Part shown: positions 1-25,164 of the stretch, piece after piece
How the letters are laid out: the number at the start of each line of letters is the position of its first letter
Numbering within the stretch: the stretch's first letter is position 1
Origin: Candidatus Hermodarchaeum yapensis
GTDB lineage: Archaea > Asgardarchaeota > Hermodarchaeia > Hermodarchaeales > Hermodarchaeaceae
Direction: 5' to 3'
Assembly: GCA_016840405.1 (NCBI GenBank)
Contig: JAEOSK010000039.1
Location: 1 to 25,267 of the forward strand
DNA: 25,267 nt
The notes under the pieces: model-generated
What the model saw: only the letters and a program-made list of their open reading frames with translations
What the model was told of the DNA's origin: nothing
Database searches by the model: none
Made by a program: the position numbers and the translations under genes

Positions 1-1194
1 GGTGAGATTCTCTGGCTTTACTTCAACTATACCGATTGGGATGGAAGCCAAATTATTGGTGCCACGGGTAGTTATGATTGGGACTTTGGACTTGGTGCAC
101 TAGTATTCGAGAATGGTTACTACATTGCTAAAATTGACTTAACCAACGCCCAGCCTGGAGAACACCAGCTGAGAGCTTCAATAACTCGCCAAAACTATGA
201 ACGCGGCCAAATCAGTCAAATGGCTCTGACGATTATCCCTGTCCCAACTGCAATCACTGGCATGGAAACTACCTTACTTAAAAACACTGGTGAATTATTC
301 TGGATCACAGTAACACTTGAAGATACTTACCATAATCTCACAGTGAGTGATGCTACGCTTTTCATCACTGTTCCCATATTGAACATTGATGATCAAGAAA
401 TGGTCAACAATGGTGATGGAACCTACTCCTTCGGACCGATTAGCTTCCCGCTTCAGGGTCAGTGGGAAATTGCTATTCGTTCTGATCCTCCTGATATCTA
501 CACTGTAGCTCAATTCTCCATCAGTGTAGGTGTCAGCCTTGATCCCATCGTCGTACAGGGTATCCAATTGGGTCTCATCGCCGCGATTATCGGAATCATC
601 CTATTACTTGCCTGGTTAGCTTATACTCGGGTCTTCGCCATTCCGTGGCTTGTCCGGAAGATGCGAAAGATGTCCCAAACCCTCGGCAAAGGTAGAACTC
701 CTCATCTCTCCAATCGAGATGTTAACCGAATTGCTACCAGACCCGATTCCATGACCGGCATCGCTGAACCCGCCTATGATGCCATCGGCTTACCCGCCGC
801 TGCGACAGTCCTACCTGCTGCCATCACCATCGAAGAACGCGAAGCCGAAGACGAAATCATCTGGCAAGAACTCGAAAAACTCGAAGGCTTAGGCCACGAT
901 CAGAAACTCGAACTCTTCGAAGAGATGAAGCGCATTCCTGCCAAGGACCGTGTCTGGTTCCTCGAAGACCTCAAAGCCCAAATGGCCGACGGCACCCGCT
1001 TTGGCCGAATAGCCGCAGAGCCCACAGTAGTCCCCGAAGGCGTTGATCCACTCGTCCACGCCCGACTCGAAGCCCTGGAAGTCCTCGGACCCGCCGAGAA
1101 AGAAGCCGTCGTTGAACAATTACGTGGACTCTCCAAAGAGGAACAAGAAGAAGTCATCCGCGCCCTCGAAGAAACCGAGCGACAAAGCAGCTAA
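1..1194 (+). CDS. C-terminal part (5'-truncated by window) of a large Ig-like-repeat single-pass membrane protein; paralog of 1423..7170
   Basis: Frame +1 is open from base 1 (GEILWLYFNYTDWDGSQIIGA...), so ATG 220 is internal. It has two beta-sandwich-type repeats (ENGYY, NNGDGTY), a TM helix at ~562-624 (LGLIAAIIGIILLLAWLAY) and a ~190-aa charged tail that aligns with the tail of the next gene. Confidence 0.85.
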   Translation, partial: GEILWLYFNYTDWDGSQIIGATGSYDWDFGLGALVFENGYYIAKIDLTNAQPGEHQLRASITRQNYERGQISQMALTIIPVPTAITGMETTLLKNTGELFWITVTLEDTYHNLTVSDATLFITVPILNIDDQEMVNNGDGTYSFGPISFPLQGQWEIAIRSDPPDIYTVAQFSISVGVSLDPIVVQGIQLGLIAAIIGIILLLAWLAYTRVFAIPWLVRKMRKMSQTLGKGRTPHLSNRDVNRIATRPDSMTGIAEPAYDAIGLPAAATVLPAAITIEEREAEDEIIWQELEKLEGLGHDQKLELFEEMKRIPAKDRVWFLEDLKAQMADGTRFGRIAAEPTVVPEGVDPLVHARLEALEVLGPAEKEAVVEQLRGLSKEEQEEVIRALEETERQSS

Positions 1195-1206
1195 CTGCGA
1201 TAATAT

Positions 1207-1241
1207 AGGGACACAACACGTGTCCCTCTTCACTCCTTTTT
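1207..1241 (+). terminator. Hairpin plus pyrimidine/T tract, putative terminator
   Basis: AGGGACAC (1207-1214) / GTGTCCCT (1220-1227) form a perfect 8-bp stem with a 5-nt loop, followed by CTTCACTCCTTTTT just after the stop at 1194. Confidence 0.55.
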
Positions 1242-1304
1242 ATTCGAACCTAGTTAGCAAATTCGGTACAGTTTAAAGCCAAACACAATCCACAAGCCAA
1301 CCCC

Positions 1305-1327
1305 TCTAGGTTTCTCAATAACCTAGA
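1305..1327. promoter_or_regulatory. Inverted repeat upstream of the giant surface-protein gene (possible operator or hairpin)
   Basis: TCTAGGTT-N7-AACCTAGA, perfect 8-bp arms; an AT-rich TTTAAT element follows immediately. Confidence 0.3.
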
Positions 1328-1422
1328 TGTTTAATTCACAAAATGCCTATAAAACCGATTGACGAATAAAGTATATTCAACAATAGATATGGGCTATTGC
1401 GATTTCCCGGGTTAATTGTGGG

Positions 1423-4400
1423 GTGTGGTTCGTGAGAAAAGTAAAGGGAGTTCCCCTGTTAGTAGTTACATTATTCTTAACCATCGCTCTGAGTGCCATT
1501 GTTCCTAACCAATCGATAATTGCTAAAGCGTCACCAACTACGCCATATCAGGGCAGCGGAGCCATTCTCGATGTTCATGAATTTGCTCGAAACAATACCG
1601 GATCCTTCGCAGGACAAAATAGCACCACCTTCTCCTACAACAGTAGCAGGTACCCTTCAGGCTACCGTGGTTACCAACTTTCTACAAACGTATCACAAGT
1701 TCGCCGATTCACCGACCCCCTTCCCAACGGTTCCTTTGAAAATACCACAGCGTTCAGTTCAACATGGAATCTCACCAATTTAGAACCCGGGGACCCAATT
1801 ATCACATCACTTACACCCGAACTGGGTCCCAGTCCAACCGATGGACTGTATGTCATGGATATGGAGCTTCCTCATAAGAAGATGAATGGGCAACGAACGG
1901 CGTACATCGATAACGATTTCAACTATACATCGGAATTCTTCCCCGATGTTACTGAAGTACGGTTTGATATCCGACTCGAAGATATCTCAGATAAAGACTG
2001 GCTCTTCTTACGAGTGGCTATCTGGAATCAAGGATCGGAGAAGGGCGTTTGGTCATACGATCTCAAAACGTTAAAGGCTGATATTGGTGAGGATTCCTGG
2101 AGTAGCCAACAATTTTTCACATCGTCAGTGAATGGACAAATCAAACTCCGGATCACTTTGTTTAAACAAACCCCGAAAAATGAAGATGTCAAAGGTCACA
2201 TTTACTTCGATAATTTCCGTTATATCATTGGTTCTGATGTCACGCCTAGTGAAGCCGGATTAACACTAAATGGTGAACCTTTCCTTGACGCGCCTTCAGG
2301 TCCATCAGGAAGCGTCGATATTTACGCCGATGCACTCTACGGTGAGGATGTTCCTTGGGCAAATTGCTGGAGCACAGATCAGCTATTCCAATTCGCTTCA
2401 CCACTCTATAGCAACCTCACCTTCTATTACGAATATGTCATGTATGTGAAGGCTATCAACTCTAGCGTAGCTGCAACTGCGTTCTCCGCGCCGGTTGACG
2501 GAACCCCCATCTGGACCATTCAATACGCGGTACCTGGTGGGCGACCACCCACAGATTACGAAGGTTATGCATTTGGTCTTCATCTCTCCACTGGATGGGC
2601 GTGCTTCTATGCTAATGATAGCCTCGGAACGCCCGTAACCTACTCTGTTAACTCAACTAGTAATTTTGTCAAGCTAGATGAGGATGAAGCGATTTCAGGT
2701 CGAACGTATTCAATATACGCTACAGCTCAGAATTATGTTCAGACGGTGATTTTACAAAAATCAGCTACAGGAGTTGCTCCTTGGGAGAACGTGACTTCCA
2801 ATGATTTTTACGTAATTGGCGATTACCTGAGAGTTACAGCTGAATTAATGCCCTTTGAATCAGATCCTTCGAATTTTGGGAACGTTACAGTCTATTATCC
2901 TGATGGTACTCCCTGGCGGAATGATGATTCCGTGCAATTCTTTGAAAATAATGATTCTCTTGTGAGTGATGCCTGGCAGATCACTGGTTCTGACGTTGAT
3001 GATTCCATAATCGGTCAAGACTGGATTGCCACCGTGTCCTTTGATAACAGCACTCAGTGTGGTAAGCGCCAAAGTCTTTTCACGGTAGTCGTGGAAACCT
3101 CATATACGAAAATTGACCCCACCGATGGCGCAAACGTCCTTTGGGGTGACTCGGTCTATGTTGAAGTAAATTGGCAAAACAATCATACGGGTAGCCCTAT
3201 CATTGATGCATCCACAGCACGGGTTCGCTATCTCGATCGCAATCTTGTCGTCCAATACGTCACAATGACCCCAGATGGGCTAGGTAACTACAGCACTGAT
3301 GTATCAACGACTCTAATGAGTCCAGACAGAAATGCGCAAATCCATGTAGAGCTCTTCAAATACGGTTACCAAAACGCCAGCTACGCCGATGGAACACAAA
3401 TCACCTTTACGATTAATCTCATCAACAAACTCAACCTCGTCATGATAAAACCCACCCTCATTACTGGACCCAATGAATTCACCGGTGAGACCTCAGCTTT
3501 CGAAGGGTTCACCAGTATTGTCAAGTTTTATGACCCCTATCAAGGTGCATACGTCCTTGATGGATCTGGAACATGGCCCACTGTTATTGTGAATTATACA
3601 TCATACGAAGATCCTGACGGTGGACCAGCCGAGTGGAATTTTTGGGGCACAGGCTTTTTTGCTCACAATGCTAGTGAGCGAACTTTTTCGAAGGATGATT
3701 CAAGTTACGTTGGAGTTGAACGAGTTAAGTATGAAGTCTCAATGCGAATCGAAGGGGCTTCGTGGGATTTCGAACAACACAATTTCACCATAATCATTAA
3801 TATCGTCTCCTGGGCTACTGACCTTGACGCATTACACACTTCAATTGAATATCCTCCAACAGGCGATGGGTGGACGCAATTCGATCAAACATCAGATAAT
3901 TATGATGCCCACGTGTATTGGAGTGAACAGTTCAATGTCACCGTATTCTATCACCTTGCGCAAAGTACAACTGGACTCCCTGACGCTGATGAACGGAGTA
4001 TAAAAATTGGCGCCTCATCCCCCCAAAACATGAACGATATCACTGGTGGCTACTATCAATACATCATTGATACATCTTCATTGGAATTGGGATTAACGAC
4101 AATTCTTATTACTGTGACAGAACCTGGCTATGCTTCGCAGACCATTTTAATTCAGCTGTTCATTGAAGCCCGACAAACGGTGCTAACCAAGGATCAACCC
4201 GGGTCGACAGCTATAATCCCTTGGGGCAGTATCTTCAGTGTCACTTTTTCATATAATGACACGGTCGAATCTTCACCCATTCCCATTCCTGACGCAAATG
4301 TAGTAGTTGAATTCACAACAAGTTCACTTCCCTACTCAATTACAAACCATACAGATGGCACCTACACCGTTTCCTTCACCGGAAATGCTGATGAAGGAAC

Positions 4401-7170
4401 CTATTCAATCACCATCTTCTTCACTCGGGACAAATATCAATCACAAAATCAGATTTATGAACTGACAATTCGCCTCATAGCCACACAAACTATCGGGCTC
4501 GCCAACACCCCAACCGTTCCATGGGGCGACAATGCAATCATAACCCTCACGTTTACTGATATTGACAATTCGCTTGGCATTTCAAGTGCATCATTTAACT
4601 TCACATCTCATGGGATATGGCTAATTGAAGGGGTAGACTATTGGGTTACGGATCTAGGAAACGGAGACTATACTTTAACCCTAAACACTACTCAAGTTCC
4701 CAAAGGTACTCACGGATACACCTTATTCTTTACGTTCACCAAGGACCATTACCAAACATCCCAAACGGCAGTGTTCTTCCAAGTGCGAGACATTCAGACC
4801 ATCCTCTTTATCACAGATACTCCCGATGGAACGATTATTCCCTATGGTGATGTGTTCACGCTCATCCTCCAATTCAACAACACCGATCTCATACCCAGCT
4901 CCATCATCGGAGATGCAATTATTGATTGCGACTGGGATCCCGTCTTCTGGAATTACACCTACGATGCAGGTCAAGGAATCTACATCGTAATGATTCAAAC
5001 ACAAATTCGATCTGAAGGAACATACATCGTAAATCTGCAAGCAAGCAAATCCCATTATTATGATGGGAGTAATATTCAGACGTTTGTAATTCGCACTATC
5101 CAAACCTTTGCTGAAACCATTCCCAGCTTCATTGATAATATTCCCATTGGTGATAATGCAAGTTTTTACCTCCATTATGAAGACTTAGATCACCCCGGTC
5201 AATTCATTCCGTATGCAAACGTAAGCATCACCTGGGATCCTGGTTATTACTCAATTACTGATATTGGAAATGGAACCTACATTATTGAATTGAATACAAC
5301 AAGTGGTTCTGTTGGGCCTTATTCCCTTCAAGTAGATGTGGGGTTGCCTCCACATTACGATTCTCGAACAGTCTATGTTACCATCAATATCGTTACGGTA
5401 GTCCTAACCATTCAAGTTGAAGAACCAAGTACAACACAAATTGAAGCCGTATTCAACACTCAGATTATATTAACGGTTAATATCACCGATAGCCATGGCA
5501 ATCCGATTAACGATGCTATTGTAACTTACCAATGGGATCAACGCGATGCTGTAAATATGACCTGGATTGGAAATGGCCAATACACAACTTCATTTCTTGC
5601 TAATGCTACTGTGGGTCCAAATTACCAGATCGCTATTCAAGCATATCATCCGGACAAGTATATTTCTGATGTCACGAGCATATTTCTCGTCATTCAACCT
5701 ATAGAAACCAATCTTGATGAAATCACACCTATCGCTATTCAAACTGTAATCGGTGAATCCTTTATTCTTAGTGTGAATTTCACAACAGATAATGATCAAC
5801 CAATCAATGGTGCACTCATTAATTTCATCGTTCGTAATGCAAGTCAGCATCTGATGTTCAATGGGACTTTCACGTTAGTTGGCCCAGGAATTTACAATGC
5901 TACTGTTGATAGTACTGGTCTCCTATTTGGAGTTTACATGATTTATGTTGAAGCTACCAAACCGACATTGCGTACACAATTTGCTGAATTTCAAGTAACC
6001 TTGACCAGAATTCCCGTCGAAATCATTGTACCTCCTGAGCAGATTGATGTTTTTACCAACAGTCCCTTTCTAGTTCGAGTCACACTCATCGATTATTATG
6101 GTCAACCGATTTCAGATGCTAATCTTACAATTTTAATTCCCGGATTGGTTGACATAGGCGGGCTAATGTATAATCATCAAAATGGCACCTATTCATACAT
6201 CGGTAATAGTGGGTTCAATGTCCGTTTATATCAGATTTTTATTGATGCTTCGGCGCCTCAACAATACATGCCATCCGATACAGCTGAAATCATTCTAGTT
6301 GTGAGAGCTAGTCCAATAATGACTCAACTAATGGGCTATGTAGCAGTTGCAGCGATCATTATCGTGGCCGTTCTTGCTCTTTGGCTTGCATACACGCGCA
6401 TATTTTCTGTCCCCTGGATGGTACGCCGAATGCGGAAAATGTCTAAAACCCTTGGCAAAGGCGATACTCCCACCCTGTCAAAGACTGATATTATGCGAAT
6501 ATCGGATCGCCCGGATCAGCTGACTGAAATTATTAATCCCTATTATGGAGCTATTGGTGTCCGAGCTAGCACTGCTGTGCTTCCGGCGGAAATCGATTGG
6601 AAAGAAAAAGATGCGGAAGATGATGCCATCTGGGGTGAACTCAAGAACTTACCAATGCTTGAATACGAACAACGATTAGAACTCTTCCAGCAAATGAAGC
6701 AAATCGCCCCCTCTGAACGAGTGTGGTTCCTTGACGATTTGAAGAAACAAATGGCTGATACGACTCGTTTTGCCCGGAAGGTCAAAGAACCGGAAATATC
6801 CGAAGATCTTGAACAGGAACTCCAGGCGCGTTTAGCTACATTTCCTGCCTTGAGTAAGATCGAAAAAGATCGTATCGCAGCGCAATTACGCAAACTTCCC
6901 AAAGAGGAATGGGATGAAATCTTCCATACACTCGCAGCGTCCCAGAAACAACCCACACCACAAGTCGAAGTTCTTGCCCCTGACGAACTACCAAGCCTCT
7001 CTGAAGAAGAAAAGAAGCGTGTTCTTGAAGAAATTAAAGATCTGAGTGAAGAAGAACGAGAAAAGGTGCTTCGTACCCTTCGCGATAAACAATCCAAAGA
7101 TGCCCCCAAAGGAAAGGTCGTGAAAGGAAAGAAGAAATTCGTCATAGACGAATCAGAAGATGCTGAATAA
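1423..7170 (+). CDS. Giant (1915 aa) type-I membrane/surface glycoprotein: signal peptide, CBM-like jelly-roll, ~10 Ig-like repeats, TM helix, cytoplasmic helical-repeat tail
   Basis: N-terminal signal peptide (RKVKGVPLLVVTLFLTIALSA; GTG 1432 is an alternative start). A LPNGSFE...IYFDNF segment is typical of CBM4/9-like domains. About 100-aa repeats carry [VI]PWG, I.DA.V, GNG.Y and K..Y motifs, with many N-x-S/T sequons. TM at 6331-6393, then a ~258-aa charged tail. Confidence 0.88.
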   Translation: MWFVRKVKGVPLLVVTLFLTIALSAIVPNQSIIAKASPTTPYQGSGAILDVHEFARNNTGSFAGQNSTTFSYNSSRYPSGYRGYQLSTNVSQVRRFTDPLPNGSFENTTAFSSTWNLTNLEPGDPIITSLTPELGPSPTDGLYVMDMELPHKKMNGQRTAYIDNDFNYTSEFFPDVTEVRFDIRLEDISDKDWLFLRVAIWNQGSEKGVWSYDLKTLKADIGEDSWSSQQFFTSSVNGQIKLRITLFKQTPKNEDVKGHIYFDNFRYIIGSDVTPSEAGLTLNGEPFLDAPSGPSGSVDIYADALYGEDVPWANCWSTDQLFQFASPLYSNLTFYYEYVMYVKAINSSVAATAFSAPVDGTPIWTIQYAVPGGRPPTDYEGYAFGLHLSTGWACFYANDSLGTPVTYSVNSTSNFVKLDEDEAISGRTYSIYATAQNYVQTVILQKSATGVAPWENVTSNDFYVIGDYLRVTAELMPFESDPSNFGNVTVYYPDGTPWRNDDSVQFFENNDSLVSDAWQITGSDVDDSIIGQDWIATVSFDNSTQCGKRQSLFTVVVETSYTKIDPTDGANVLWGDSVYVEVNWQNNHTGSPIIDASTARVRYLDRNLVVQYVTMTPDGLGNYSTDVSTTLMSPDRNAQIHVELFKYGYQNASYADGTQITFTINLINKLNLVMIKPTLITGPNEFTGETSAFEGFTSIVKFYDPYQGAYVLDGSGTWPTVIVNYTSYEDPDGGPAEWNFWGTGFFAHNASERTFSKDDSSYVGVERVKYEVSMRIEGASWDFEQHNFTIIINIVSWATDLDALHTSIEYPPTGDGWTQFDQTSDNYDAHVYWSEQFNVTVFYHLAQSTTGLPDADERSIKIGASSPQNMNDITGGYYQYIIDTSSLELGLTTILITVTEPGYASQTILIQLFIEARQTVLTKDQPGSTAIIPWGSIFSVTFSYNDTVESSPIPIPDANVVVEFTTSSLPYSITNHTDGTYTVSFTGNADEGTYSITIFFTRDKYQSQNQIYELTIRLIATQTIGLANTPTVPWGDNAIITLTFTDIDNSLGISSASFNFTSHGIWLIEGVDYWVTDLGNGDYTLTLNTTQVPKGTHGYTLFFTFTKDHYQTSQTAVFFQVRDIQTILFITDTPDGTIIPYGDVFTLILQFNNTDLIPSSIIGDAIIDCDWDPVFWNYTYDAGQGIYIVMIQTQIRSEGTYIVNLQASKSHYYDGSNIQTFVIRTIQTFAETIPSFIDNIPIGDNASFYLHYEDLDHPGQFIPYANVSITWDPGYYSITDIGNGTYIIELNTTSGSVGPYSLQVDVGLPPHYDSRTVYVTINIVTVVLTIQVEEPSTTQIEAVFNTQIILTVNITDSHGNPINDAIVTYQWDQRDAVNMTWIGNGQYTTSFLANATVGPNYQIAIQAYHPDKYISDVTSIFLVIQPIETNLDEITPIAIQTVIGESFILSVNFTTDNDQPINGALINFIVRNASQHLMFNGTFTLVGPGIYNATVDSTGLLFGVYMIYVEATKPTLRTQFAEFQVTLTRIPVEIIVPPEQIDVFTNSPFLVRVTLIDYYGQPISDANLTILIPGLVDIGGLMYNHQNGTYSYIGNSGFNVRLYQIFIDASAPQQYMPSDTAEIILVVRASPIMTQLMGYVAVAAIIIVAVLALWLAYTRIFSVPWMVRRMRKMSKTLGKGDTPTLSKTDIMRISDRPDQLTEIINPYYGAIGVRASTAVLPAEIDWKEKDAEDDAIWGELKNLPMLEYEQRLELFQQMKQIAPSERVWFLDDLKKQMADTTRFARKVKEPEISEDLEQELQARLATFPALSKIEKDRIAAQLRKLPKEEWDEIFHTLAASQKQPTPQVEVLAPDELPSLSEEEKKRVLEEIKDLSEEEREKVLRTLRDKQSKDAPKGKVVKGKKKFVIDESEDAE

Positions 7171-8074: not shown

Positions 8075-8617
8075 ATGGACCAATTCAAAACCCTTCAAGA
8101 ATTCATTACTGCCTGGATGGACGAGTTATGGTGGAGTATGCGTGATCGCGTCGGTGCCTTATCCATAATTGAAAGTCTCCAAAACTCTTGGCTAGCCTCA
8201 GGGCGTAAAGTAGGGGAACTCGCCAAAGCTGAGGGAATGAACCTCCTGAAAACAGTTGAAACGGGCAATGCTATGTTTGGGCGTTCTGTCAAAACAACCA
8301 AGGACACGGTCATTGTCAACGCTTGTCCTATTTGGAACCGAATCCTCAAAGGGAACCTCGAATATGGTCTTCGATGTGAGGAATTCATCTGTGCACCCTA
8401 TCTAACTGGGATCAAAGAGGCTCTCGGAGGGAAGGAAGCCAGGGTGGAAACAAATCTACGTCTCAACCATGTCGCTCGAGCCCGGTTAGAATACAAGCTT
8501 TCCAAACTGAGAGCTGCAAGTAGTACAGATTCGAAGACCAAACCACAAATTGATGAACTCGAAAAACAACTGGCCAACTTGCCAAAAGAACCCGCATGCA
8601 TTTTCCAAGTCAAATAA
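8075..8617 (+). CDS. V4R/MetOD1/DUF6125-like protein with four Cys and a helical insertion
   Basis: N-terminal helices with W...G+K.G, then VIVNACP...RCEEFIC...G...ALG and a terminal ACIFQVK strand, the Cys pattern of the V4R-like fold. Confidence 0.55.
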   Translation: MDQFKTLQEFITAWMDELWWSMRDRVGALSIIESLQNSWLASGRKVGELAKAEGMNLLKTVETGNAMFGRSVKTTKDTVIVNACPIWNRILKGNLEYGLRCEEFICAPYLTGIKEALGGKEARVETNLRLNHVARARLEYKLSKLRAASSTDSKTKPQIDELEKQLANLPKEPACIFQVK

Positions 8618-8750: not shown

Positions 8751-10142
8751 GTGTCACGAATGGCTTCTAAAACAGCCAAACAATCAATTACACAGCTCTT
8801 TTCAGGGAAATCCGTCGTGCTAGTCGGAGCCAGTGCGAATCCCCGCTCATTCGGTTTTCAAGTTGCTCGGTCACTAATCAAAGATTTCAACGGACCTGTC
8901 TATTATGTTAATCCCACAGAGGCCCAAGTTTTCGGGTCCCCGACCTATTCGAAAATCACAGAAGTTCCTAATGGCGAGCATCTCTGGATTATCGCTATGC
9001 CGACAAAAGAGTTCGCGAAAACTCTTCTTCTCATTGGGAAACGCCAACCCTTAGCAATTCTATTTCTCGTTGAACTCTCACCGTCCATTTTTGATGAATT
9101 AAACAAGGTGATTTCAAAACTCCCTTGTCCCGTCATTGGACCTCGTAGTGCTGGATTCTTTGATACTACAACAAATCTGGATATGCTTCCCTTTCCTGTT
9201 GAAGTATTACCTCGACCACCCAAAGGGGCTACCGGAGTCATTACGGATAATCGTGATGTTGCCTACGGCCTCTTGGAACAATTAACCAAATATCGATGTG
9301 GAGTTTCTCGCTTTGTCGATCTTGGCGAAACATTAGGAACGAACGAAACTGAACTCCTCTCTTTCTTTACACAAGACAAAGCTACCCAAGTCATACTTTT
9401 TGGCGCTGGGCAAATATCGAATCTCAAGAAATTTCAAGCGGCTATTCAGCGAGCTCATAAGGTTCGAAAACCAATAATTGTCTCACTCTTTCCTGAAGAA
9501 ATCACAACCCAACTCGGATTACATCGACGAACAGGAGAAAACATCGAACCTCTTACAAAGGCACTTGCAGAACAACACCACCTCATGGTGACTCCATCAT
9601 GGGGCCGTGCAGTCGACTTAGCCCTGATCTGTCAAACCCAACCCCTCCCTCAAGGACCCGGAGTAGCAGCCATCTCAAATTTTGGGGCCTATTGTGTCTA
9701 TGCTGCGAGTGCAATCCATGCCTCTGATTTACAGCTGGCGACATTCAGCAAAGACACTTCACAGAATTTGAAAGCCCATCTACCTCCCTACTGCCGCTGC
9801 GACAACCCCATCTGTTTATACACAAACGCCGACGAAGTCCGCCTCGATACCGCTCTACGCCTCATCCTACCAGATCCCAATGTTCACAGCGTCATTCTCA
9901 GTCTTCTCCCCGACTCCCCTAATATCGACCCCGATTACCTTTACGTTATGCTCCGACAACGTCTCAAAACTCTCGACACACCAAAAACTATTGTCGCCGT
10001 AATCCCCGCCACTGAACGAGACAATCTCCTCATTCAAAGCTTTGAACGTCTCAACATTCCCGTCTATTCCAACTCACACCGAGCCGTCACAACCCTACAG
10101 AACGCCTACCACCTCACCCAATTACTCAAACCCAAAACATAG
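8751..10142 (+). CDS. Degenerate paralog of ADP-forming acyl-CoA synthetase alpha subunit (CoA-binding domain protein, probable pseudo-enzyme)
   Basis: Colinear with 10467..11876 (VVLVGAS, YYVNP, VIGP, QPLPQG, NPI.L), but catalytic motifs are replaced: GPNCIG>GPRSAG, SQSGA>TDNRD, GNKAD>GETLG, AVSHTG>GLHRRTG, NPIDL>NPICL. ATG 8760 is an alternative start. Confidence 0.8.
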   Translation: MSRMASKTAKQSITQLFSGKSVVLVGASANPRSFGFQVARSLIKDFNGPVYYVNPTEAQVFGSPTYSKITEVPNGEHLWIIAMPTKEFAKTLLLIGKRQPLAILFLVELSPSIFDELNKVISKLPCPVIGPRSAGFFDTTTNLDMLPFPVEVLPRPPKGATGVITDNRDVAYGLLEQLTKYRCGVSRFVDLGETLGTNETELLSFFTQDKATQVILFGAGQISNLKKFQAAIQRAHKVRKPIIVSLFPEEITTQLGLHRRTGENIEPLTKALAEQHHLMVTPSWGRAVDLALICQTQPLPQGPGVAAISNFGAYCVYAASAIHASDLQLATFSKDTSQNLKAHLPPYCRCDNPICLYTNADEVRLDTALRLILPDPNVHSVILSLLPDSPNIDPDYLYVMLRQRLKTLDTPKTIVAVIPATERDNLLIQSFERLNIPVYSNSHRAVTTLQNAYHLTQLLKPKT

Positions 10143-10154
10143 GAGTGGATACAA

Positions 10155-10412
10155 ATCTACAAAGCATATGTTCTCATCAAAGTAACTCCTCAACAGGAGG
10201 ACCTAATTCTTCGGGAGATATCAAAGATATCTTCAATATCTGAGTCGCATAAACTGTTTGGACTTTACGACATCATTGTCGAAATCGAGCGGAAGGGGAT
10301 GCGAGATATCATGGAAACCGTATCCAAGATTCGTAGCCTCAAAGGTGTAATGGACACAATTACTAATCTCGTAGCAGACTTCGAGATGGATGTTCACGGT
10401 GCTCCTCTCTGA
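10155..10412 (+). CDS. Stand-alone Lrp/AsnC ligand-binding (RAM) domain protein, ~85 aa, with no canonical start codon
   Basis: Not in the ORF track. Translation: (I)YKAYVLIKVTPQQEDLILREISKISSISESHKLFGLYDIIVEIERKGMRDIMETVSKIRSLKGVMDTITNLVADFEMDVHGAPL*. It has the classic AYVLI...FG.YDII...IR.L.GV..T.T pattern. AGGAGTGG lies upstream of ATC 10155; the start position is inferred. Confidence 0.85.
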   Translation: MYKAYVLIKVTPQQEDLILREISKISSISESHKLFGLYDIIVEIERKGMRDIMETVSKIRSLKGVMDTITNLVADFEMDVHGAPL

Positions 10413-10466
10413 ATATACGAAGAGCTACCAAGGAATATACTGGAGGTCGATTGAGGGACAATTACC

Positions 10467-11876
10467 ATGACAGCGGATTTAGAGCCGTTTTTCAATCCTA
10501 AAACGGTAGCCGTAGTCGGTGCATCTGCGCGAAAAGCGAGTGTTGGCGGAGTGATTTTTCGAAACTTCCTCAAACCCGCTTTCAAAGGCACTGTCTATCC
10601 AGTTAATCCACGGACGACGGATGTCTTAGGCATCACAAGTTATGAGCGCGTTTCCTCAGTCCCTGACCCTATTGACCTCACTGTAATAGCAGTCCCCGCG
10701 GGTATTGTCCCCAAAATCATGCTTGACTGCGAAGAAAAGGGAGTCAAAGCCGTCATTATCATCAGTGGGGGATTCAAAGAAATCGGATCTGAAGGAGCAT
10801 ACCTTGAACAACAAATCGTCGAAATTACCCAACGGAGTGGTATACGCGTCATAGGACCAAATTGTATCGGAATCTACGATACCAATACGGGTGTCGACAC
10901 CACCTTTTTACCTGCATCACGGATGGGTCGACCGGGTAAAGGCTACATCAGTTTCATTAGTCAAAGTGGAGCTTTTGCTGCTGCAGTTCTTGACATGAAT
11001 GCTCAATCTGGGCTAGGGGTTAGTCGTGTCGTTAGTTTTGGTAACAAAGCGGATGTCAACGAAATCGATCTCATAGACTATCTTGGAAAGGATCCTGAAA
11101 CCCGGGTCATTGTCGAATATCTAGAGGGGCTTTCCCCAAGTACCGGTGGACAATATCTTCAAACAGCAAAAATGGTGACCCAAGAAAAACCAATCATTGT
11201 TGTCAAAGCAGGGCGGTCAGCCCGTGGATCTGTTGCTGCTGTCAGTCATACTGGGGCATTGGCTGGAGATGCACGTCTTTATGATTTTGCGTTCCATCAA
11301 GCAGGCATTATTAATGCACTTGACTTCGAAGACGGATTTGAAATGGCGAAAACCCTTGCCTCTCAACCTCCAGCAAAAGGTAATCGCATCTTAATAGTCA
11401 CCGATGCAGGAGGCGCAGGAGTGATGACGGTTGACGCCTGTGACGCTCTAGGATTACGCGTTCCCGAACCACCTGAAAAAGAGAAACAGATTCTTCGGTC
11501 AGCGTTCCCCGGCTATTGCAGTGTTAATAATCCCATTGACTTAACAGGTGATACCGACGCTGAACGCTACCAGATTGCATTCGATACGCTCCTAGGAACA
11601 CCCCATTATGATGCCGCTATTGCAATTGTGATGATGCAAGTACCTTTACTTGATCTCGATATTGTTGAACGACTTCTCTCAATTGTTCGGAAATATGACA
11701 AACCACTGGTAGCTTGCACTGCAGGTGGCCGGTTTACAATGAGCGGTGCCCGGCTTCTGGAGGAGGCAGGCATTCCTACACTACCTACTCCAGCACGAGC
11801 CGCAAAAGCCATCTGGTCACTGGTCAAATATGGGGAAATCAAACAAGCTAGACGGGAAGAAGAGTCAGCCTCTTGA
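10467..11876 (+). CDS. acdA: Acetate/acyl-CoA ligase (ADP-forming) alpha subunit
   Basis: VAVVGAS, YPVNP, IISGGFKE, GPNCIG, SQSGA, GNKAD, KAGRS..G..AAVSHTGALAG (phospho-His), NNPIDLTGD; upstream GAGGG RBS. Confidence 0.92.
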   Translation: MTADLEPFFNPKTVAVVGASARKASVGGVIFRNFLKPAFKGTVYPVNPRTTDVLGITSYERVSSVPDPIDLTVIAVPAGIVPKIMLDCEEKGVKAVIIISGGFKEIGSEGAYLEQQIVEITQRSGIRVIGPNCIGIYDTNTGVDTTFLPASRMGRPGKGYISFISQSGAFAAAVLDMNAQSGLGVSRVVSFGNKADVNEIDLIDYLGKDPETRVIVEYLEGLSPSTGGQYLQTAKMVTQEKPIIVVKAGRSARGSVAAVSHTGALAGDARLYDFAFHQAGIINALDFEDGFEMAKTLASQPPAKGNRILIVTDAGGAGVMTVDACDALGLRVPEPPEKEKQILRSAFPGYCSVNNPIDLTGDTDAERYQIAFDTLLGTPHYDAAIAIVMMQVPLLDLDIVERLLSIVRKYDKPLVACTAGGRFTMSGARLLEEAGIPTLPTPARAAKAIWSLVKYGEIKQARREEESAS

Positions 11877-11884
11877 CTAATCCC

Positions 11885-11891
11885 TTTTTTT
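11885..11891 (+). terminator. T7 tract, archaeal-type terminator candidate
   Basis: TTTTTTT 8 nt after the acdA stop. Confidence 0.4.
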
Positions 11892-11966
11892 GGTAGTAAT
11901 CACTAATTATTTCCTAATAGTAGAATTCGTCCCGTTATTCGAAATCTAAATTAAAATCAAATTAAG

Positions 11967-13325
11967 ATGATCAAAATGGGTGTAGTGAAGAAAGGTTTGG
12001 ATGTAGTCCAACGAGATAAGAAAGCTATCGGGCAAGCCCTTCGGCTAGCCTACTACCCAGTGGTCGCTGTTCGTGCTGAAGGCTCCAAAGTGTGGGACAA
12101 GGATGGAAACGAATACATTGATTTTCTTGGCGGAGCTGCAGCACTTCCTATCGGTCATCGGCATCCAGCTGTAGTCAAAGCCATCAAAGAACAAGTAGAC
12201 CAACTAATTCATCACCCACCACTTTACGGATACCATGAATTAGCAGTTGACCTAGCCGAGAAACTGAATAAACTTCCTCCCGGAGATTTTTCAAAAAAGA
12301 CGATTTTTCAACTCGCTGGCGCGGCTGCCATGGATCTCACAGTAAAACTTGTTCGAGTGGGAACCAAGCGAACAAAAATCATTACATTTCTTAAAGGGTA
12401 TTATGGCGCACTGTATGGCGCATTATCCTTGAGTGCTTTTTCAACAGTGCAACGCCGGTATTTAGGACCCTTTATTCCAGAGATTTACCATGTACCATTT
12501 GCTGACTGTTACAGATGCATCTTCAAGCAAGAATATCCAAGTTGTGGACTGGCTTGTTTGGATTATTTGAAAACAGTTCTAAAACATCTCGTGCCTCCGG
12601 AAGAAGTCGCAGCAATCATTACGGAACCCGTTGGGTCAGATGGAGGATATATCTTCCCGCCTCCCGAATGGCTGAAAGGTCTTGAGGAGCTTTGTCAGCA
12701 ACATGGTATGCTCCTTGCCCTTGATGAGATTCAAACCGGATGTGGACGCTGCGGTTCATGGTTTCTGTCAGAACAGTATAATTTAACACCTGATCTCGTT
12801 GCCTTTGGAAAGGGATTTTCTGCAGGAGTTCCGTTGAGTGGTGTGATTGGTCGGGCTTCGGTAATGGATGAATTAAAACCCCCTTCCGCAATTGGTACAG
12901 GAATTGGCAACCCAATTGTCTGTGCTGTGGCCATGGCTGTGATGGATGTGATTAGAGAAGAAAATCTCATCTTACAGTGCAAAAAGATGGGTGCCTATCT
13001 GAAGAAACGTTTCGAAGAAATGAAAGAAGATCACTCCCTAATTGGCGATGTTCGCGGTAAGGGTATGTTGATTGGCGTCGATTTGGTAAAGAATCAACAG
13101 ACACGAGAACCTGCGCGACTTGAAGCCTCCAAGGTTTGTTGGCGGTCAGGCGAGCTTGGTCTTATTCTAACAACTCTTGGTGAGTCTGTTCTTCGTGTCT
13201 GTCCTGCTTTTAATCTCACTCAAGAAGAGGCTGATCAAGCTCTTGAAATCATCGATAACGCTCTAAGTGATGTAGAGAAAGGAAAAGTTCCTGATACGGC
13301 CGTCGCTTCTCTTTCCCCTTGGTAA
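11967..13325 (+). CDS. Class III PLP-dependent enzyme (GABA-aminotransferase-like; amino-acid racemase/Ile 2-epimerase subfamily candidate)
   Basis: D.DGNEYIDF, GH.HP.VV.AI, EPVGSDGG, DEIQTG.GR.G, PDLVAFGK (PLP lysine), IGDVRGKG. Confidence 0.88.
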   Translation: MIKMGVVKKGLDVVQRDKKAIGQALRLAYYPVVAVRAEGSKVWDKDGNEYIDFLGGAAALPIGHRHPAVVKAIKEQVDQLIHHPPLYGYHELAVDLAEKLNKLPPGDFSKKTIFQLAGAAAMDLTVKLVRVGTKRTKIITFLKGYYGALYGALSLSAFSTVQRRYLGPFIPEIYHVPFADCYRCIFKQEYPSCGLACLDYLKTVLKHLVPPEEVAAIITEPVGSDGGYIFPPPEWLKGLEELCQQHGMLLALDEIQTGCGRCGSWFLSEQYNLTPDLVAFGKGFSAGVPLSGVIGRASVMDELKPPSAIGTGIGNPIVCAVAMAVMDVIREENLILQCKKMGAYLKKRFEEMKEDHSLIGDVRGKGMLIGVDLVKNQQTREPARLEASKVCWRSGELGLILTTLGESVLRVCPAFNLTQEEADQALEIIDNALSDVEKGKVPDTAVASLSPW

Positions 13326-13434
13326 CCAACTAATTAATCTCATGTACCTTCAAGAAGCATTGGCTGAAGCAATTGGTTTTTACATTCTAATATCTTCAAT
13401 GCCACAGAATCTTCAAAAATTCAAGGTGTAACTT

Positions 13435-14595
13435 TTGATTAACGTTAGCATCGTTGGTGCTGGACAAACCAAGTTTGGAAGGCATGACAATTATGATCTA
13501 AGAGAACTTTTCGTCATGGCAGCCCACGAAGCCATTGAAGAAGCTGGGATAACGCCAAAAGATGTGGAAGCCGCTTTCATTGGGAACCTCTCAGCGGATC
13601 AATTCAACCGGCAAACCCACATCGCACCACTAATGGCAGATTTTGCCGGTATGAAAGGTATTCCCGCAACGAAATGTGAAGCCGCATGCGCTTCATCTGC
13701 CACTGCATTGCGAGCTGCAATTTTAGCCATCGAATCAGGGCAACATGATGTGGTTATGGCTGCCGGTGTCGAAAAGATGACAGACCTTACCACACCAGGA
13801 GTCATTGAAACCCTAGCAATGGCTGCGGATCAAATCTTTGAAGCTCAACCTGGCATCACTTTCCCTGGCATTTTTGCCATTCTTGCTGTTGCACATATGG
13901 CGAAATATGGGACTACAAAAGAACAACTGGCTGCCGTTGCAGTGAAAAACCACGCCAATGGTGTCCATAACCCGTTGGCTCAATATCAAATGGAAATCAC
14001 CTTAGAGAAGGCTCTCTCATCACGAATGGTCGCTTGGCCTCTTGGGCTATTTGACTGTTCACCTATCACCGATGGAGCTGCAGCCGTTGTCCTAACCAAG
14101 AATAAGAAAGCCCGAAAATTCACGGATGCGCCTGTGAAAATCCTTGCGTCTGAGCAAGCAAACGATACAATGAATTTGTGTGACCGCACTGATCTGACTA
14201 GCCTGTATGCCGCACGAACGGCTGCCTATCGTGCCTACAAACAAGCTAGAATTAACCCTGACTATGTTGACGTAGCAGAGGTCCACGACTGCTTTACGAT
14301 AGCTGAAATCATTGCCACCGAAGACCTCGGCTTCTTCAAGCCAGGCAAAGGCGGTGCTGCAGTCGAAGAAGGAGTAACCCAAATTGATGGCGAAGTTGCC
14401 ATCAATACCAGCGGTGGTCTCAAAGCAAAAGGACACCCGGTGGGCGCTACTGGTGTAGCACAAATAGTAGAGCTCTATCATCAGCTGCGAAACGAGGCTG
14501 GCAAACGGCAAGTGAAATCTCCAAACGTTGGTTTAGCACATAACGTAGGTGGTACAGGAGCAACCTGTGTAATTCATATTTGTGAACGATGGTGA
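13435..14595 (+). CDS. Archaeal-type thiolase (acetyl-CoA acetyltransferase)
   Basis: EAACASS (catalytic Cys), GVEKM, VKNH.NG..NP.AQ, DCSPITDGAAA, EVHDCF, GHPVGATG; TTG start with AGGTG RBS. Confidence 0.93.
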   Translation: MINVSIVGAGQTKFGRHDNYDLRELFVMAAHEAIEEAGITPKDVEAAFIGNLSADQFNRQTHIAPLMADFAGMKGIPATKCEAACASSATALRAAILAIESGQHDVVMAAGVEKMTDLTTPGVIETLAMAADQIFEAQPGITFPGIFAILAVAHMAKYGTTKEQLAAVAVKNHANGVHNPLAQYQMEITLEKALSSRMVAWPLGLFDCSPITDGAAAVVLTKNKKARKFTDAPVKILASEQANDTMNLCDRTDLTSLYAARTAAYRAYKQARINPDYVDVAEVHDCFTIAEIIATEDLGFFKPGKGGAAVEEGVTQIDGEVAINTSGGLKAKGHPVGATGVAQIVELYHQLRNEAGKRQVKSPNVGLAHNVGGTGATCVIHICERW

Positions 14596-14600
14596 GGAAA

Positions 14601-15005
14601 ATGAGTGAAGAAACGACGATTAAGAACTATTTTGCGTTAATCAATGAAGGAAAACTCTGTGCTGCACATTGTTCGAGCTGTAACGAACTCGCTTTACCCC
14701 CGCGGCTCTTTTGCCCCAACTGTAATAGCAAGACCACTAACTGGACCGAACTGAGTGGCGAAGGAACACTACGTTCCTTTACGGTCATTCATATTGCAGG
14801 AACCACTTATGCAGCTGATGTACCCTATATCGTAGCCATCGTCGAATTAAAAGAAGGACCTGCGGTGTGTGCTCGGTTGGTTGGCGTGGATCCCTTAAAA
14901 CCCGAGGAAATCCATGTTGGTGATGCAGTCAAGGCTGATTTCGTAGAAATACCTGGACCTACTCCAGAAGAGAAGGCTAACCGCCTTGTCTTCCGTCCTG
15001 CATAG
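14601..15005 (+). CDS. DUF35 family Zn-ribbon/OB-fold protein (thiolase partner)
   Basis: CSSC...PPR.FCPNC, GEGTL.SFT, PY.VAIVEL.EG, C-terminal FRP. ATG 14601 is preceded by GGTGAGG (ORF-track start 14589). Confidence 0.92.
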   Translation: MSEETTIKNYFALINEGKLCAAHCSSCNELALPPRLFCPNCNSKTTNWTELSGEGTLRSFTVIHIAGTTYAADVPYIVAIVELKEGPAVCARLVGVDPLKPEEIHVGDAVKADFVEIPGPTPEEKANRLVFRPA

Positions 15006-15034: not shown

Positions 15035-16375
15035 TTAGTTCTTGACCCCTAGATACCGGATAATTGACACAGCGAAAACTTTAGTGGCTTTTATTAGGTC
15101 ATCGATTGCCACATTCTCATCAACCGTATGGGCTAAGACAGTATTCCCGGGTCCGTATGCAACCGTTGATTCGATACCCGCTCGACGGAGCAAACGCCCA
15201 TCAGTCGCAAAAGGAACCAGAAAGAACACCGATGGTCCCGCAATTTCTGTTGATGCATTGAAAAGTGTGACTGCCAACTTGTTTTGTCTATGAGTCGGAA
15301 CCACGCTTCCCTCAATTGCTTCGATAATCTCCATGTCACAATCTGTTGAAATGCCTAGTCTCTCTGCGTGGAACCGAATGAAGTTTATCATCTCCTCTGG
15401 TTTTTGCCCGGGTAAAATTCGAAAATCAATTTGGGCTTCACAGCGATCTGGAACTACATTCGTTAATACCCCTCCAGTTATTGTCCCAATATTCATCGAG
15501 GTTGCGTCTAAACCCTCTAACACAGCTGAAAGTGGGTTGGATTCTCCAGCCTCTTGGATGAGCGATTCAATCTGTTGCGATTCTTTCTTCAATGCCATGG
15601 CAAATTGGGAAACTACATCCTCACGGGTTAATACTGGTGGAATTGAAGGGGGTTTCGCTTCTTCTAAGGCTTGAAGCAACTTCAGCATTATTGTGATTGC
15701 ATTTTTTCCAGCGGTTGCCATACTCCCATGTGCCTTCTTCCCCTTTGTTGTAACTTTTACCCACACTGGACCCTTTTCACCGATATTCACTGCATAGCCA
15801 AGTGGCCCCATTCCCGAAGGTTCTGGAATCACAGCGGCATCGGCCTTGATTTTCTCCCACGCATTTTCGATACACCATGTGGTTCCTAGGGTTCCTTGGC
15901 GTTCCTCATCGCCTACCGCATTAAGAATCAGCGTTCCTTTCAACGGCACCTCAAGATCATGTAAAGCACAACACGCCATCGTCATAGCCGCTACTCCCCC
16001 CTTCATATCCATAGCACCCCGCCCATAGATTAACCCATCCCGAATTTCAGCCGCAAAGGGGTCCACCGTCCAATCCTCACCTGGAGGCACAACATCCACA
16101 TGACCATTAAACAACAGCCGCTTCCCCTTATTCACCTTCCAAGTAGCCACCAAGTTATCGATATTTGGGTGTGAGGAAAAATACTCTGTCTGAATTCCTC
16201 GATGTTCCAGTGTTTTTCCTACACGATGAGCTACTTCAGCCTCTCCTCGAGTTTCACGGTCCCAACTAGGAATTCGAATGATATCCTGACACAATTTAAC
16301 CAGTTCATTTTCTAGCCTGTCAACATGATCGAGTACTTTCTGTTCCCATCCATTCTCAGTCAAATTTGACACCAC
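15035..16375 (-). CDS. M20 family metallo-hydrolase (ArgE/DapE-like deacylase)
   Basis: NGHVDVVP, GRGAMDMKGG, GDEE, EP, HGS...G.NAI, NVVPD, ATDGR, AH..DE. Confidence 0.92.
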   Translation of the reverse strand: MVSNLTENGWEQKVLDHVDRLENELVKLCQDIIRIPSWDRETRGEAEVAHRVGKTLEHRGIQTEYFSSHPNIDNLVATWKVNKGKRLLFNGHVDVVPPGEDWTVDPFAAEIRDGLIYGRGAMDMKGGVAAMTMACCALHDLEVPLKGTLILNAVGDEERQGTLGTTWCIENAWEKIKADAAVIPEPSGMGPLGYAVNIGEKGPVWVKVTTKGKKAHGSMATAGKNAITIMLKLLQALEEAKPPSIPPVLTREDVVSQFAMALKKESQQIESLIQEAGESNPLSAVLEGLDATSMNIGTITGGVLTNVVPDRCEAQIDFRILPGQKPEEMINFIRFHAERLGISTDCDMEIIEAIEGSVVPTHRQNKLAVTLFNASTEIAGPSVFFLVPFATDGRLLRRAGIESTVAYGPGNTVLAHTVDENVAIDDLIKATKVFAVSIIRYLGVKN

Positions 16376-16744
16376 AAAATCTTATCACAGTTTCAAAACA
16401 ATATTTTGCATTATTAACAACTGTTTAACTTGATTGTTGCTCTAACCGTCAAAATGATACTACCGCTTTTGTAGTACAATCTTCAAGTGTTTCTATCTGA
16501 AGTATTAGTAATTTTTTACATCTAACACAGTAGTTTATTATTAAATACCCATTCTAATCCTCTTTACCGATTTATCCACATATTTTGCCTTCTTCTTACA
16601 AACTGACAGTTATTTTCCCTTTTTCTTCACCTCTAGCCTATAACCAGTCGAAGAATTGCAAAATCTGGTATATCAGTGATTAGAATTCAGCAAGATTCAC
16701 TTTTATTCAATTAACCTTGGATGCTTCATCCTATGTAGTTTCAT

Positions 16745-17569
16745 ATGAAGCTGGTGGGGTATATCATGATTGATCGACGTGTAGCTGATTTCTTCCAATT
16801 TTGGCGTGAGCAATATCGGTGGCCCCTTGGGTGTTCACGGGTTAAAACGGAAAAGAAAATCTTCGAATTTGCAGAAAATGCTAGAGCTGCTGTTTCTTCT
16901 GGGAAAGTGGAACGGCTAACTAGTACCTTGATGCAAATACACAGGTGGAAAACGCGTAACCAAGCAGGAATTACAGATAAATATGCTAGACAGCTTGATA
17001 AAGAACCGAAACGAGTACGGGAACTCCAAAAGCTGCTGCCAATCACTAAAGAAACACCAAACATGGTTTTGAAAAACGTCTTAGATTTAATGCGATTCCC
17101 TGATTGTAACTTACCGGTATGCACAGCACAGTTAAGTTTCCTTTCAGGAAGAGTGTTCCCGATTCTAGATCGGTTTCTGGCTCAATTCTTTAGCCGAAAA
17201 GCGCACCCAATGATACTCCAATGGGCTGAATATGATATTCTCAACGTTTTCGAAACGATTGGAAAAATTAACTTTATCCTTGAAGATGATGGACGTAACA
17301 AAGAGGTACCTAGGCTTGCAGTTTATACTGAAAACTCCTATCGGTATAATCGAGATCAGTATGTAGAACAGCTTATTCCAAGACTTCAAAATCTAGCTAT
17401 GGAACTACAAGGGGGCGATTTGACATACCAAGGCATTGATCGAGATCAGCACCATTTTACTAGTGTCGACCTACAAATGGCGATATTTATGTTTGGTAAA
17501 AAAAACCCGCGATTATTCAAAAAATTTTACAAAACACTCCCAATTCCTAATCTAACCATTCAAACTTAG
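16745..17569 (+). CDS. Hypothetical protein, possible HhH/OGG-fold DNA-glycosylase-like
   Basis: 274-aa ORF with I..WK, a degenerate HhH-like stretch (LMRFPDCNLPVCTAQL), FPILDR and a C-terminal T..D..MAIF, a pattern seen in HhH-superfamily orphans. Confidence 0.45.
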   Translation: MKLVGYIMIDRRVADFFQFWREQYRWPLGCSRVKTEKKIFEFAENARAAVSSGKVERLTSTLMQIHRWKTRNQAGITDKYARQLDKEPKRVRELQKLLPITKETPNMVLKNVLDLMRFPDCNLPVCTAQLSFLSGRVFPILDRFLAQFFSRKAHPMILQWAEYDILNVFETIGKINFILEDDGRNKEVPRLAVYTENSYRYNRDQYVEQLIPRLQNLAMELQGGDLTYQGIDRDQHHFTSVDLQMAIFMFGKKNPRLFKKFYKTLPIPNLTIQT

Positions 17570-17627
17570 GTTTAAAGAAATGAGATAAATCCAAGTAGAA
17601 CAGATAGTGCTCTGAATAGCAAAGGCT

Positions 17628-18224: not shown

Positions 18225-18303
18225 AAACATGAAAAGACAATTCCACAAGTAAAAATTTTAAAATGCAATTCAAGATGAAAGCCACCCAAAAAATCGGAAG
18301 CGG

Positions 18304-18807: not shown

Positions 18808-18817
18808 AGACAACTAG

Positions 18818-20206: not shown

Positions 20207-20286
20207 TTTTTAACAGAATTTAAGCAGTCTATAATCGAATGTAATGGCACTTCTTGGAATGACCAAGATTAGGATTTCCGATTACA

Positions 20287-21451: not shown

Positions 21452-21462
21452 TTTCCCCTTTC

Positions 21463-21529: not shown

Positions 21530-21594
21530 ACTGTCGAACACCAACCAACATACCGAAAATCAAGAGGCTTTTACTTTAGAGGTGAATAGAAAAG

Positions 21595-21699: not shown

Positions 21700-21719
21700 C
21701 CCATTAAAATTCTAGCATT

Positions 21720-25153: not shown

Positions 25154-25164
25154 CTTGAGTAGCA

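Follow-up and report, generated by a model that had tools for sequence, protein, structure and literature searches.

Tandem giant surface proteins of an Asgard archaeon carry a conserved C-terminal tail module predicted to lie in the cytoplasm

Introduction

The first 7,170 nucleotides (nt) of contig JAEOSK010000039.1 of Candidatus Hermodarchaeum yapensis (assembly GCA_016840405.1) raise the question of why two neighbouring giant genes, here called A and B, should join strongly diverged immunoglobulin-like (Ig-like) ectodomains to one and the same kind of membrane-spanning and C-terminal region. The stretch analysed, referred to as the window, comprises positions 1 to 25,267 of the forward strand of this contig. 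A first-pass annotation of the bare sequence had proposed that A and B form a transmembrane adhesion or receptor system coupled to a cytoplasmic partner, possibly acting as a heterodimer, and had surmised an Asgard-type source, as is indeed the case. Cultured Asgard archaea have been described as lacking an S-layer and any ordered lattice and as carrying unidentified "complex surface proteins" (PMC9834061; bioRxiv 10.1101/2025.11.06.686947). Surface-adherent crawling that is driven by Lokiactin and makes use of actin-filled protrusions has also been reported in them, with no adhesion molecule named (PMC13716822). To judge from their sequences, A and B are members of a family specific to Asgard archaea, made up of giant type I surface proteins with a single membrane pass and predicted N-glycosylation. 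The homologues found here are, every one, named "hypothetical protein" in the databases.

Two giant genes with a common tail

According to the list of open reading frames (ORFs) of the window, nt 1-7170 are filled by two co-oriented ORFs. ORF A (1-1194) is cut at its 5' end by the contig start, leaving 397 amino acids (aa) visible and only the last 189 residues of its ectodomain, and ORF B (1423-7170) begins with a GTG codon and encodes 1915 aa. The transmembrane (TM) helix of A occupies aa 190-208 (nt 568-624) and precedes a tail of 189 aa (nt 625-1191); in B the helix was placed at aa 1639-1657 (nt 6337-6393) and is followed by a tail of 258 aa (nt 6394-7167). The features of both genes are listed below with the evidence for each, including independent E-values (iE) of hidden Markov model (HMM) matches and the confidence (predicted local distance difference test, pLDDT) of AlphaFold2 (AF2) models.

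1..567, forward strand: visible end of the gene A ectodomain, Ig-like repeats (translation, repeat-level similarity to the Ig region of B, 2 sequons)
568..624, forward strand: gene A TM helix (hydrophobic stretch aa 190-208)
625..834, forward strand: juxtamembrane segment of gene A, in which the basic helix PWLVRKMRKMS is followed by the motifs LS..D..R and P.Y..IG (36-tail alignment)
835..1002, forward strand: gene A helical unit 1, three-helix bundle with DRVWFLEDL motif (unit-1 HMM aa 279-334, iE 1e-28)
1042..1176, forward strand: gene A helical unit 2 (unit-2 HMM aa 348-392, iE 1e-16)
Gene A end, forward strand: coding to 1191, stop codon 1192-1194
1423..1530, forward strand: gene B GTG start and predicted Sec-type signal peptide with RKVK, hydrophobic core and AKA (translation; hydropathy peak aa 7-12)
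1540..2832, forward strand: gene B head, predicted all-beta, jelly roll resembling carbohydrate-binding modules (CBMs) (AF2 model and Foldseek)
2833..6336, forward strand: gene B stalk, Ig-like repeats rich in N-x-S/T sequons (Pfam Invasin_D3; sequon count)
6337..6405, forward strand: gene B TM helix (hydropathy; AF2 helix at tail-model residues 2-23)
6406..6603, forward strand: juxtamembrane segment of gene B, with the basic amphipathic helix SVPWMVRRMRKMSK ahead of two short helices (AF2 helices 26-39, 48-70)
6604..6771, forward strand: gene B unit 1 (HMM iE 1e-26; three AF2 helices 94-139, pLDDT 86-93)
6808..6942, forward strand: gene B unit 2 (HMM iE 1e-19; AF2 helices 155-203, pLDDT 81-94)
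6973..7092, forward strand: gene B unit 3, an extra copy not present in A (unit-3 HMM iE 5e-19; unit-2 HMM 9e-8)
7105..7170, forward strand: gene B C-terminal KGKxVKGKKKFVIDE-acidic motif and stop codon (tail alignment)

BLASTP aligns 359 aa of A with B at 40% identity (E 5e-70), and the identity climbs sharply past the hydrophobic helix. TM helix plus tail alone are 50% identical over 193 aa (E 2e-67), whereas the best ectodomain segment pair reaches 30% over 106 aa (E 8e-7), in agreement with the first-pass description of a shared TM-plus-tail module beside far more diverged last Ig repeats. The tail coordinates given there (625-1194 and 6394-7170) and its consensus string proved correct, the latter being visible in the same alignment. 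Six giant ORFs of this genome and 40 cluster representatives bear the tail, which puts the match between A and B far beyond chance. Recent gene conversion between the two genes was considered and rejected because their tails are just 50% identical at the protein level.

Topology and ectodomain

The hydropathy profile of B contains, besides the signal, a sole strong peak at aa 1630-1660. The 1638-aa ectodomain holds 43 N-x-S/T sequons (2.6 per 100 aa), 4 Cys and 4% Lys plus Arg; the 258-aa tail has zero sequons, zero Cys, 18% Lys plus Arg and 20% Asp plus Glu. Seven Lys or Arg residues lie in the 25 residues past the TM helix, versus one in the 25 before it. All paralogues are alike in this respect, with 1.1-3.2 sequons per 100 aa of ectodomain and 0-1 in the tails. 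By the positive-inside rule the charge distribution points to an intracellular tail, as do composition and sequon counts, and A and B are accordingly predicted to be type I membrane proteins with a cytoplasmic tail. The long conserved intracellular region that had been proposed is supported by these features and by the signal peptide.

Pfam recognises nothing but Ig-like repeats in the ectodomain of B: Invasin_D3 is matched at aa 952-999 with 49.2 bits (cut-off 33), and Big_1 (23.8 bits) and Filamin (20.2 bits) both remain under their cut-offs. The head was modelled with AF2 from 26 homologues (residues 40-470) as an all-beta structure with pLDDT 90.8 and a predicted template modelling score (pTM) of 0.74. 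Foldseek matched this model to CBM61, CBM16 and CBM4-2 at E-values of 1.6e-6 to 3e-5 (template modelling scores 0.60-0.71, normalised to target), and also to MAM and ephrin-receptor ligand-binding domains. In the model, B therefore looks like a lectin-type head carried on an Ig stalk, that is, an adhesin-like design.

Anatomy of the tail

The organisation of the tail was derived from 36 tails aligned with MAFFT and from an AF2 model based on 22 sequences. The model (pLDDT 79, pTM 0.30) consists of confident bundles that are mutually independent. From the membrane inwards, the TM helix is followed by a basic amphipathic helix with the motif [FY]S[IV]PWxVR+MRK, by two short helices (LS..D..R and P.Y..IG) and by the helical units. 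The Pro of the PW motif, just past the TM helix, is the sole invariant column in 29 tails drawn from many Asgard lineages. Unit 1 is a three-helix bundle marked by the motifs EL..[IL]PGLG.EEK and KIP.KDRVWFL.DL+.QM, and unit 2 by L..IP.LS.EEK..L...L+.LS.EE+; the linker between them measures 0-80 residues. Unit 3 and the KGKKKFVID-acidic end belong to B-type proteins only. The terminal KGKxVKGKKKFVIDE-acidic motif is kept in 8/10 aligned three-unit tails, the ends of P0009 and P0011 having diverged, and in B it is probably disordered, as its AF2 pLDDT below 50 suggests.

The unit-2 HMM detects both unit 1 (7e-8) and unit 3 (9e-8), and this cross-detection indicates that the tail is a tandem array of one ancestral bundle of ~45-55 aa. 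The number of units varies from two in A and three in B up to five in another family. The units have a mean net charge of -3 to -4 and the 25-aa juxtamembrane segment one of +4.6, and whole tails go down to -34.

In two paralogues of the source genome, on contigs C12 (G000:C12:23493-24365) and C28 (G000:C28:1298-2149), the linker between units 1 and 2 extends to ~80 aa and is rich in Pro, Glu and Lys, with PEP, PKP and PPE runs that A and B lack. It could serve as a poly-proline docking site.

Conservation and selection

Against three orthologues, identity amounts to 33-62% in the ectodomain, 73-80% in unit 1 and 67-77% in unit 2, and unit 1 is among the best-conserved segments of B (73-85% across orthologues). 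Between A and its nearest orthologue, synonymous divergence (dS) is the same on both sides of the split (0.52 and 0.55), and the ratio of nonsynonymous to synonymous divergence (dN/dS) is 0.24 for the 182 ectodomain residues nearest the membrane and 0.053 for TM helix plus tail; the dN/dS comparisons leave out P0043, an orthologue with 91% identity. Overall, tail dN/dS ranges over 0.05-0.13 versus 0.24 for the adjoining ectodomain, a sign of strong purifying selection on the tail, and in B the proportion of nonsynonymous differences is 0.09-0.18 in the tail versus 0.27-0.36 in the ectodomain. Within the module, constraint is weakest on the TM helix (35-52% identity, dN/dS 0.23-0.43). Column conservation over 26 full-length homologues is 0.61 in the juxtamembrane segment and 0.60 in unit 1, with an ectodomain mean of ~0.48 and the lowest values, 0.33-0.37, in the membrane-proximal repeats. 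Taken together, the tail is overall more conserved than the ectodomain and is the sole part common to all paralogue classes, without being uniquely conserved.

The orthologous locus L133 (G099:C188:2700-8900), compared with window 1423-7167, displays a mosaic divergence: its tail is 83% identical with a proportion of synonymous differences (pS) of 0.52, and its ectodomain 47% identical with a saturated pS of 0.79. The pattern points to recombination, with either ectodomains swapped on a constant tail or the tails themselves exchanged.

Copy number and distribution

Six tail copies are present in the source genome, two on contig C29 and one each on C54, C12, C28 and C59 (the last cut by the contig end), and all of them terminate ORFs of 1277+ to 4075 aa. 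Their tails are 35-64% identical, their ectodomains 23-30% at the level of Ig repeats only. Genomes of the same genus contain 3-4 tandem copies followed by the same nitroreductase and ACD genes, from which it follows that the window holds the last two genes of a conserved array. The survey of copy number, tandem arrangement and ectodomain variety that the first-pass annotation had called for thus returned a multi-copy family with 3-4 gene tandem arrays and varied ectodomains.

A phmmer search of 1.84 billion cluster representatives gave 40 matches, C-terminal wherever the protein was full length. A pattern scan of 185,579 species genomes yielded 38 confirmed loci, 29 of them in metagenome-assembled genomes (MAGs) labelled Hermodarchaeota or other Asgard and nine in three unlabelled "uncultured archaeon" MAGs. 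When a profile of 29 tails was run against 268 Asgard genomes at least 85% complete, 207 were matched, and in several families the tail is nearly universal:

Family f20: tail match in 104/106 genomes
Family f31: tail match in 58/58 genomes
Family f19: tail match in 9/9 genomes
Family f27: tail match in 4/4 genomes

In one large Asgard family the tail is built from a variant unit, repeated up to five times, and a genome may hold as many as 10-11 of the genes. Tail-bearing ORFs of other genomes reach 6555 aa, and the lineages of loci L007, L008 and L016 insert further helical repeats in the tail.

At one locus (L060, G333:C3:360041-360694), a tail copy lies in a 316-aa open frame inside a large contig, adjoining a full 2612-aa paralogue; it may represent either a gene for the tail alone or a giant gene that has been disrupted.

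Searches for a known family

No match of the tail to Pfam or NCBIfam rose above threshold, the sub-threshold noise including BET, RRF, MgtE_N, YqbF_HeH, RecX and SAP. Across 29 diverse tails, Pfam gave scattered weak matches, most commonly RecX_HTH1 (7/29, E 0.005 or weaker); the RecX repeat family was rejected, its best listed scores being 12-13.5 bits against a gathering cut-off of 26. The profile search of the PDB returned no tail match, its hits being confined to the ectodomain Ig parts of the alignment. With the tail model, Foldseek reached E 0.25 at best, for engineered protein A repeats, and the wide structural search with VIA-align gave top Z-scores of 5.4-5.7 for the protein A B domain, the CtsR C-domain and measles P XD. 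A search of the ESM Atlas with the tail gave no usable match, and a full-text literature search found no paper describing the module. The tail is, therefore, a module absent from domain databases that matches no characterised family, as Pfam, NCBIfam, PDB profiles, Foldseek and VIA-align agree. A characterised family for the tail, a tail no more conserved than the ectodomain and an extracellular tail were all looked for, and none was found outright.

Neighbourhoods and other genes of the window

Gene neighbourhoods were compared at 20 loci from 17 genomes and six Asgard families (37 flanks plus the downstream stretch of the window). The recurrent neighbours are further giants, ACD-type ligases and, in one family, a metzincin-like extracellular protein. 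Downstream of A and B the window carries metabolic genes, namely a nitroreductase, two ACD-type CoA ligases, an aminotransferase, a thiolase and a DUF35-type OB protein, and the paralogue loci of the source genome have nothing in common but metabolic paralogues. Both the window array and the C12 paralogue adjoin an ACD-type CoA ligase, a thiolase and a DUF35/ChsH2-type OB protein, which are 35%, 47% and 33% identical, respectively, between the two loci (window 8751-15005; G000:C12:17675-23483). In another Asgard family, giant genes of three genomes likewise have an ACD-type ligase beside them. The shared neighbours may reflect either an old segmental duplication or conserved synteny.

The metzincin-like protein (L018:5106-7307, forward strand; homologues at L025, L027, L030 and L037) is a secreted protein of 720-734 aa with a C-terminal membrane anchor and the motif HETMHSIGIGH (HExxHxxGxxH). 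It lies directly upstream of a giant gene, co-oriented with it, in five genomes of one large family; it has no Pfam match and no clear homologue in the source genome. An apparent soluble carrier of the unit elsewhere (L015/L017) was dismissed, as it turned out to be another type I surface protein. Encoded at L017:5237-8350 on the reverse strand (G165:C123), this Asgard protein has a sequon-rich ectodomain, a TM helix at ~aa 585-605 and a cytoplasmic tail of ~430 aa that contains an unassigned domain, one LSEEEK-type unit and a Lys-rich end. Resemblance of this unassigned domain to "hypothetical proteins" of Asgard archaea that are small and soluble is indicated by the Atlas (score 0.87), to be taken as a lead only.

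In the remainder of the window, G+C falls from 0.45-0.48 to 0.38-0.42 beyond ~nt 16000 (16000-25267). The ORFs at 8075-8617, 16745-17569, 18304-18807, 20287-21129 and 23699-25153 have no Pfam match, and HHH_8 is the only domain of the 190-aa ORF at 21852-22424.

Discussion

In our reading, many different adhesin or coat ectodomains are mounted on one intracellular module that docks a shared partner, and we put the chances of this at about even. The ectodomains would serve as adhesins or form the coat of the Asgard envelope, which lacks an S-layer, and the basic juxtamembrane helix may rest against the inner membrane leaflet. A docking platform, its valency set by the number of units, could then be provided by the helical bundles and would tie many ectodomains to one common intracellular partner or sub-membrane scaffold. 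Several observations count against such a platform. No cytoplasmic gene recurs beside the giants in the 20 loci, which come from many genera, and the unit HMMs found the unit on no soluble protein of the source genome. Five Asgard families are devoid of any tail match (0/49 genomes), a result that doubles as a control for specificity. In f19, closed genomes of 6.0 Mb and 4.3 Mb included, just the TM helix and the juxtamembrane motif are kept and the remainder is K/E-rich low-complexity sequence, so that the bundles are not universal. The structural matches of the tail (Z below 6) are generic three-helix bundles, within the background for small helical bundles. Finally, the contrast drawn by the first-pass annotation between tail and ectodomain stands as regards the slower evolution of the tail but is less absolute than was supposed: across the 26 full-length homologues, certain stretches of the ectodomain equal the tail in conservation (0.57-0.63 versus 0.60-0.61), and the head of paralogue C54 is 41% identical to that of B.

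It is unlikely that the giants are the adhesion receptors of Asgard archaea, with heads binding partner cells or substrate glycans and tail units recruiting the Lokiactin cytoskeleton or membrane-remodelling machinery. The terms "receptor" and "heterodimer" in the first-pass proposal found no support: the tail is without a signalling domain and no conserved partner gene appeared in the loci compared, and a heterodimer gains no support from the TM helix, on which constraint is weakest. A signalling receptor, in which ligand binding by the head alters the state of the tail and relays a signal to a cytoplasmic effector, would be in line with the receptor-like architecture, an Ig stalk topped by a head of CBM-like or MAM-like type, and with PAS-type sensors, one of them with a histidine-kinase ATPase domain, located within a few kb of a C54-type paralogue in three genomes. 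However, no known signalling domain, be it a kinase, a phosphatase or a cyclase, is present in the tail; in the window no PAS gene adjoins the giants, a single genus accounts for two of the three cases, and the TM helix, the would-be transmitter, is poorly conserved; we regard signalling as very doubtful. A tether between membrane and DNA, in which the three-helix units would bind nucleic acids in the manner of helix-turn-helix, SAP or RecX-like domains and keep the chromosome attached to the membrane, is scarcely credible. The RecX_HTH1 matches, together with SAP (E 0.03) and YqbF_HeH (E 0.008), would be its trace in Pfam, but all of them fall far under the curated cut-offs, and DNA binding is rejected on the acidic charge of the units and tails.

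A different kind of explanation sees in the module a device for biogenesis, anchoring or retention, in which TM helix and basic motif would set the topology and keep the giants in the membrane, while the units would aid folding, targeting or quality control in the course of export instead of engaging a partner. The element most widely conserved across the phylum is indeed the TM-proximal motif, [FY]-x-[IV]-P-x-x-[IV]-[RK]... with its invariant Pro, and not the bundles; the f19 genomes with their bare motif and the missing partner gene at the loci compared point the same way. A stop-transfer anchor, however, requires only a few basic residues, whereas units 1 and 2 lie 90-200 residues from the membrane and rank with the most constrained segments of the whole protein (73-90% identity, dN/dS 0.05-0.18). 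Moreover, exosortase/archaeosortase (PF09721) has no match in the source genome, which is 86% complete, the control Methanocaldococcus jannaschii (M. jannaschii) being matched, and sorting of the PGF-CTERM type is rejected, since no PGF motif precedes the helix and 189 aa (A) or 258 aa (B) extend beyond it. An anchoring role of this sort has, in our estimation, a low probability. Lateral self-assembly, by which acidic bundles would bind each other or the basic juxtamembrane helices and form a sub-membrane lattice organising the coat, agrees with the confinement of the units to the giants themselves, with their tandem arrangement and variable number, with the complementary charges of units and juxtamembrane helices and with the several co-oriented paralogues per genome. 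AF2, on the other hand, gives no contacts between units within the chain, and the tail is free of a coiled-coil signature; self-assembly appears distinctly improbable.

The reading as a docking module makes the giants named and searchable candidates for linking the Asgard cell surface to the cell interior: they are multi-copy, occur in most sampled Asgard lineages and combine an adhesin-like ectodomain with a constrained intracellular module. As the tail is short, modular and confidently modelled by AF2, it could be used as a bait for partners, by which a coupling between surface and cytoskeleton would become testable. Should the tail be merely an anchor, it would still represent a new Asgard-specific C-terminal anchor domain for the annotation of hundreds of "hypothetical" giants.

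Comparison with known systems

Archaeal S-layer glycoproteins of the haloarchaeal type resemble the giants in having a Sec signal, a large ectodomain with N-glycosylation (predicted from sequons in the giants), a single C-terminal TM helix and multiple copies that make up the outer face of the cell. Their anchors, however, stop a few basic residues past the helix or are PGF-CTERM-processed, whereas 189-430 structured, conserved residues follow it in the giants; the tails of A and B, at 189-258 aa with predicted folded units, are no short cytoplasmic stub. The bacterial Big-domain adhesins of the invasin/intimin group present, like B, a distal binding domain on a rod of Ig-like repeats. They are anchored by an outer-membrane beta-barrel, have no cytoplasmic module and carry a C-type-lectin-like head, in contrast to B, with its N-terminal signal and CBM-like jelly roll and its C-terminal TM anchor. 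At the level of the units, staphylococcal protein A domains, RecX repeats and the paramyxovirus P XD share bundle size and topology and a tandem arrangement on flexible linkers, and those domains bind proteins; this is a structural likeness only, and a generic one (Z 5.4-5.7, Foldseek E at least 0.25).

Among eukaryotic type I adhesion receptors, integrin beta, cadherins and SibA of Dictyostelium are alike on paper, as each combines a variable adhesive ectodomain and one TM helix with a short conserved adaptor-docking tail common to the paralogues. The giants have no sequence or fold relation to them, and Pfam matches none of their tails to those of cadherins or integrins. The sequence NPYY is particular to B, the family column in the 36 tails being P-x-Y without the Asn, and no NPxY or catenin-binding motif is conserved. 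If the giants did prove to be adhesion receptors, their tails would constitute a prokaryotic functional counterpart of the integrin, cadherin and SibA tails, independently evolved and predating eukaryotes.

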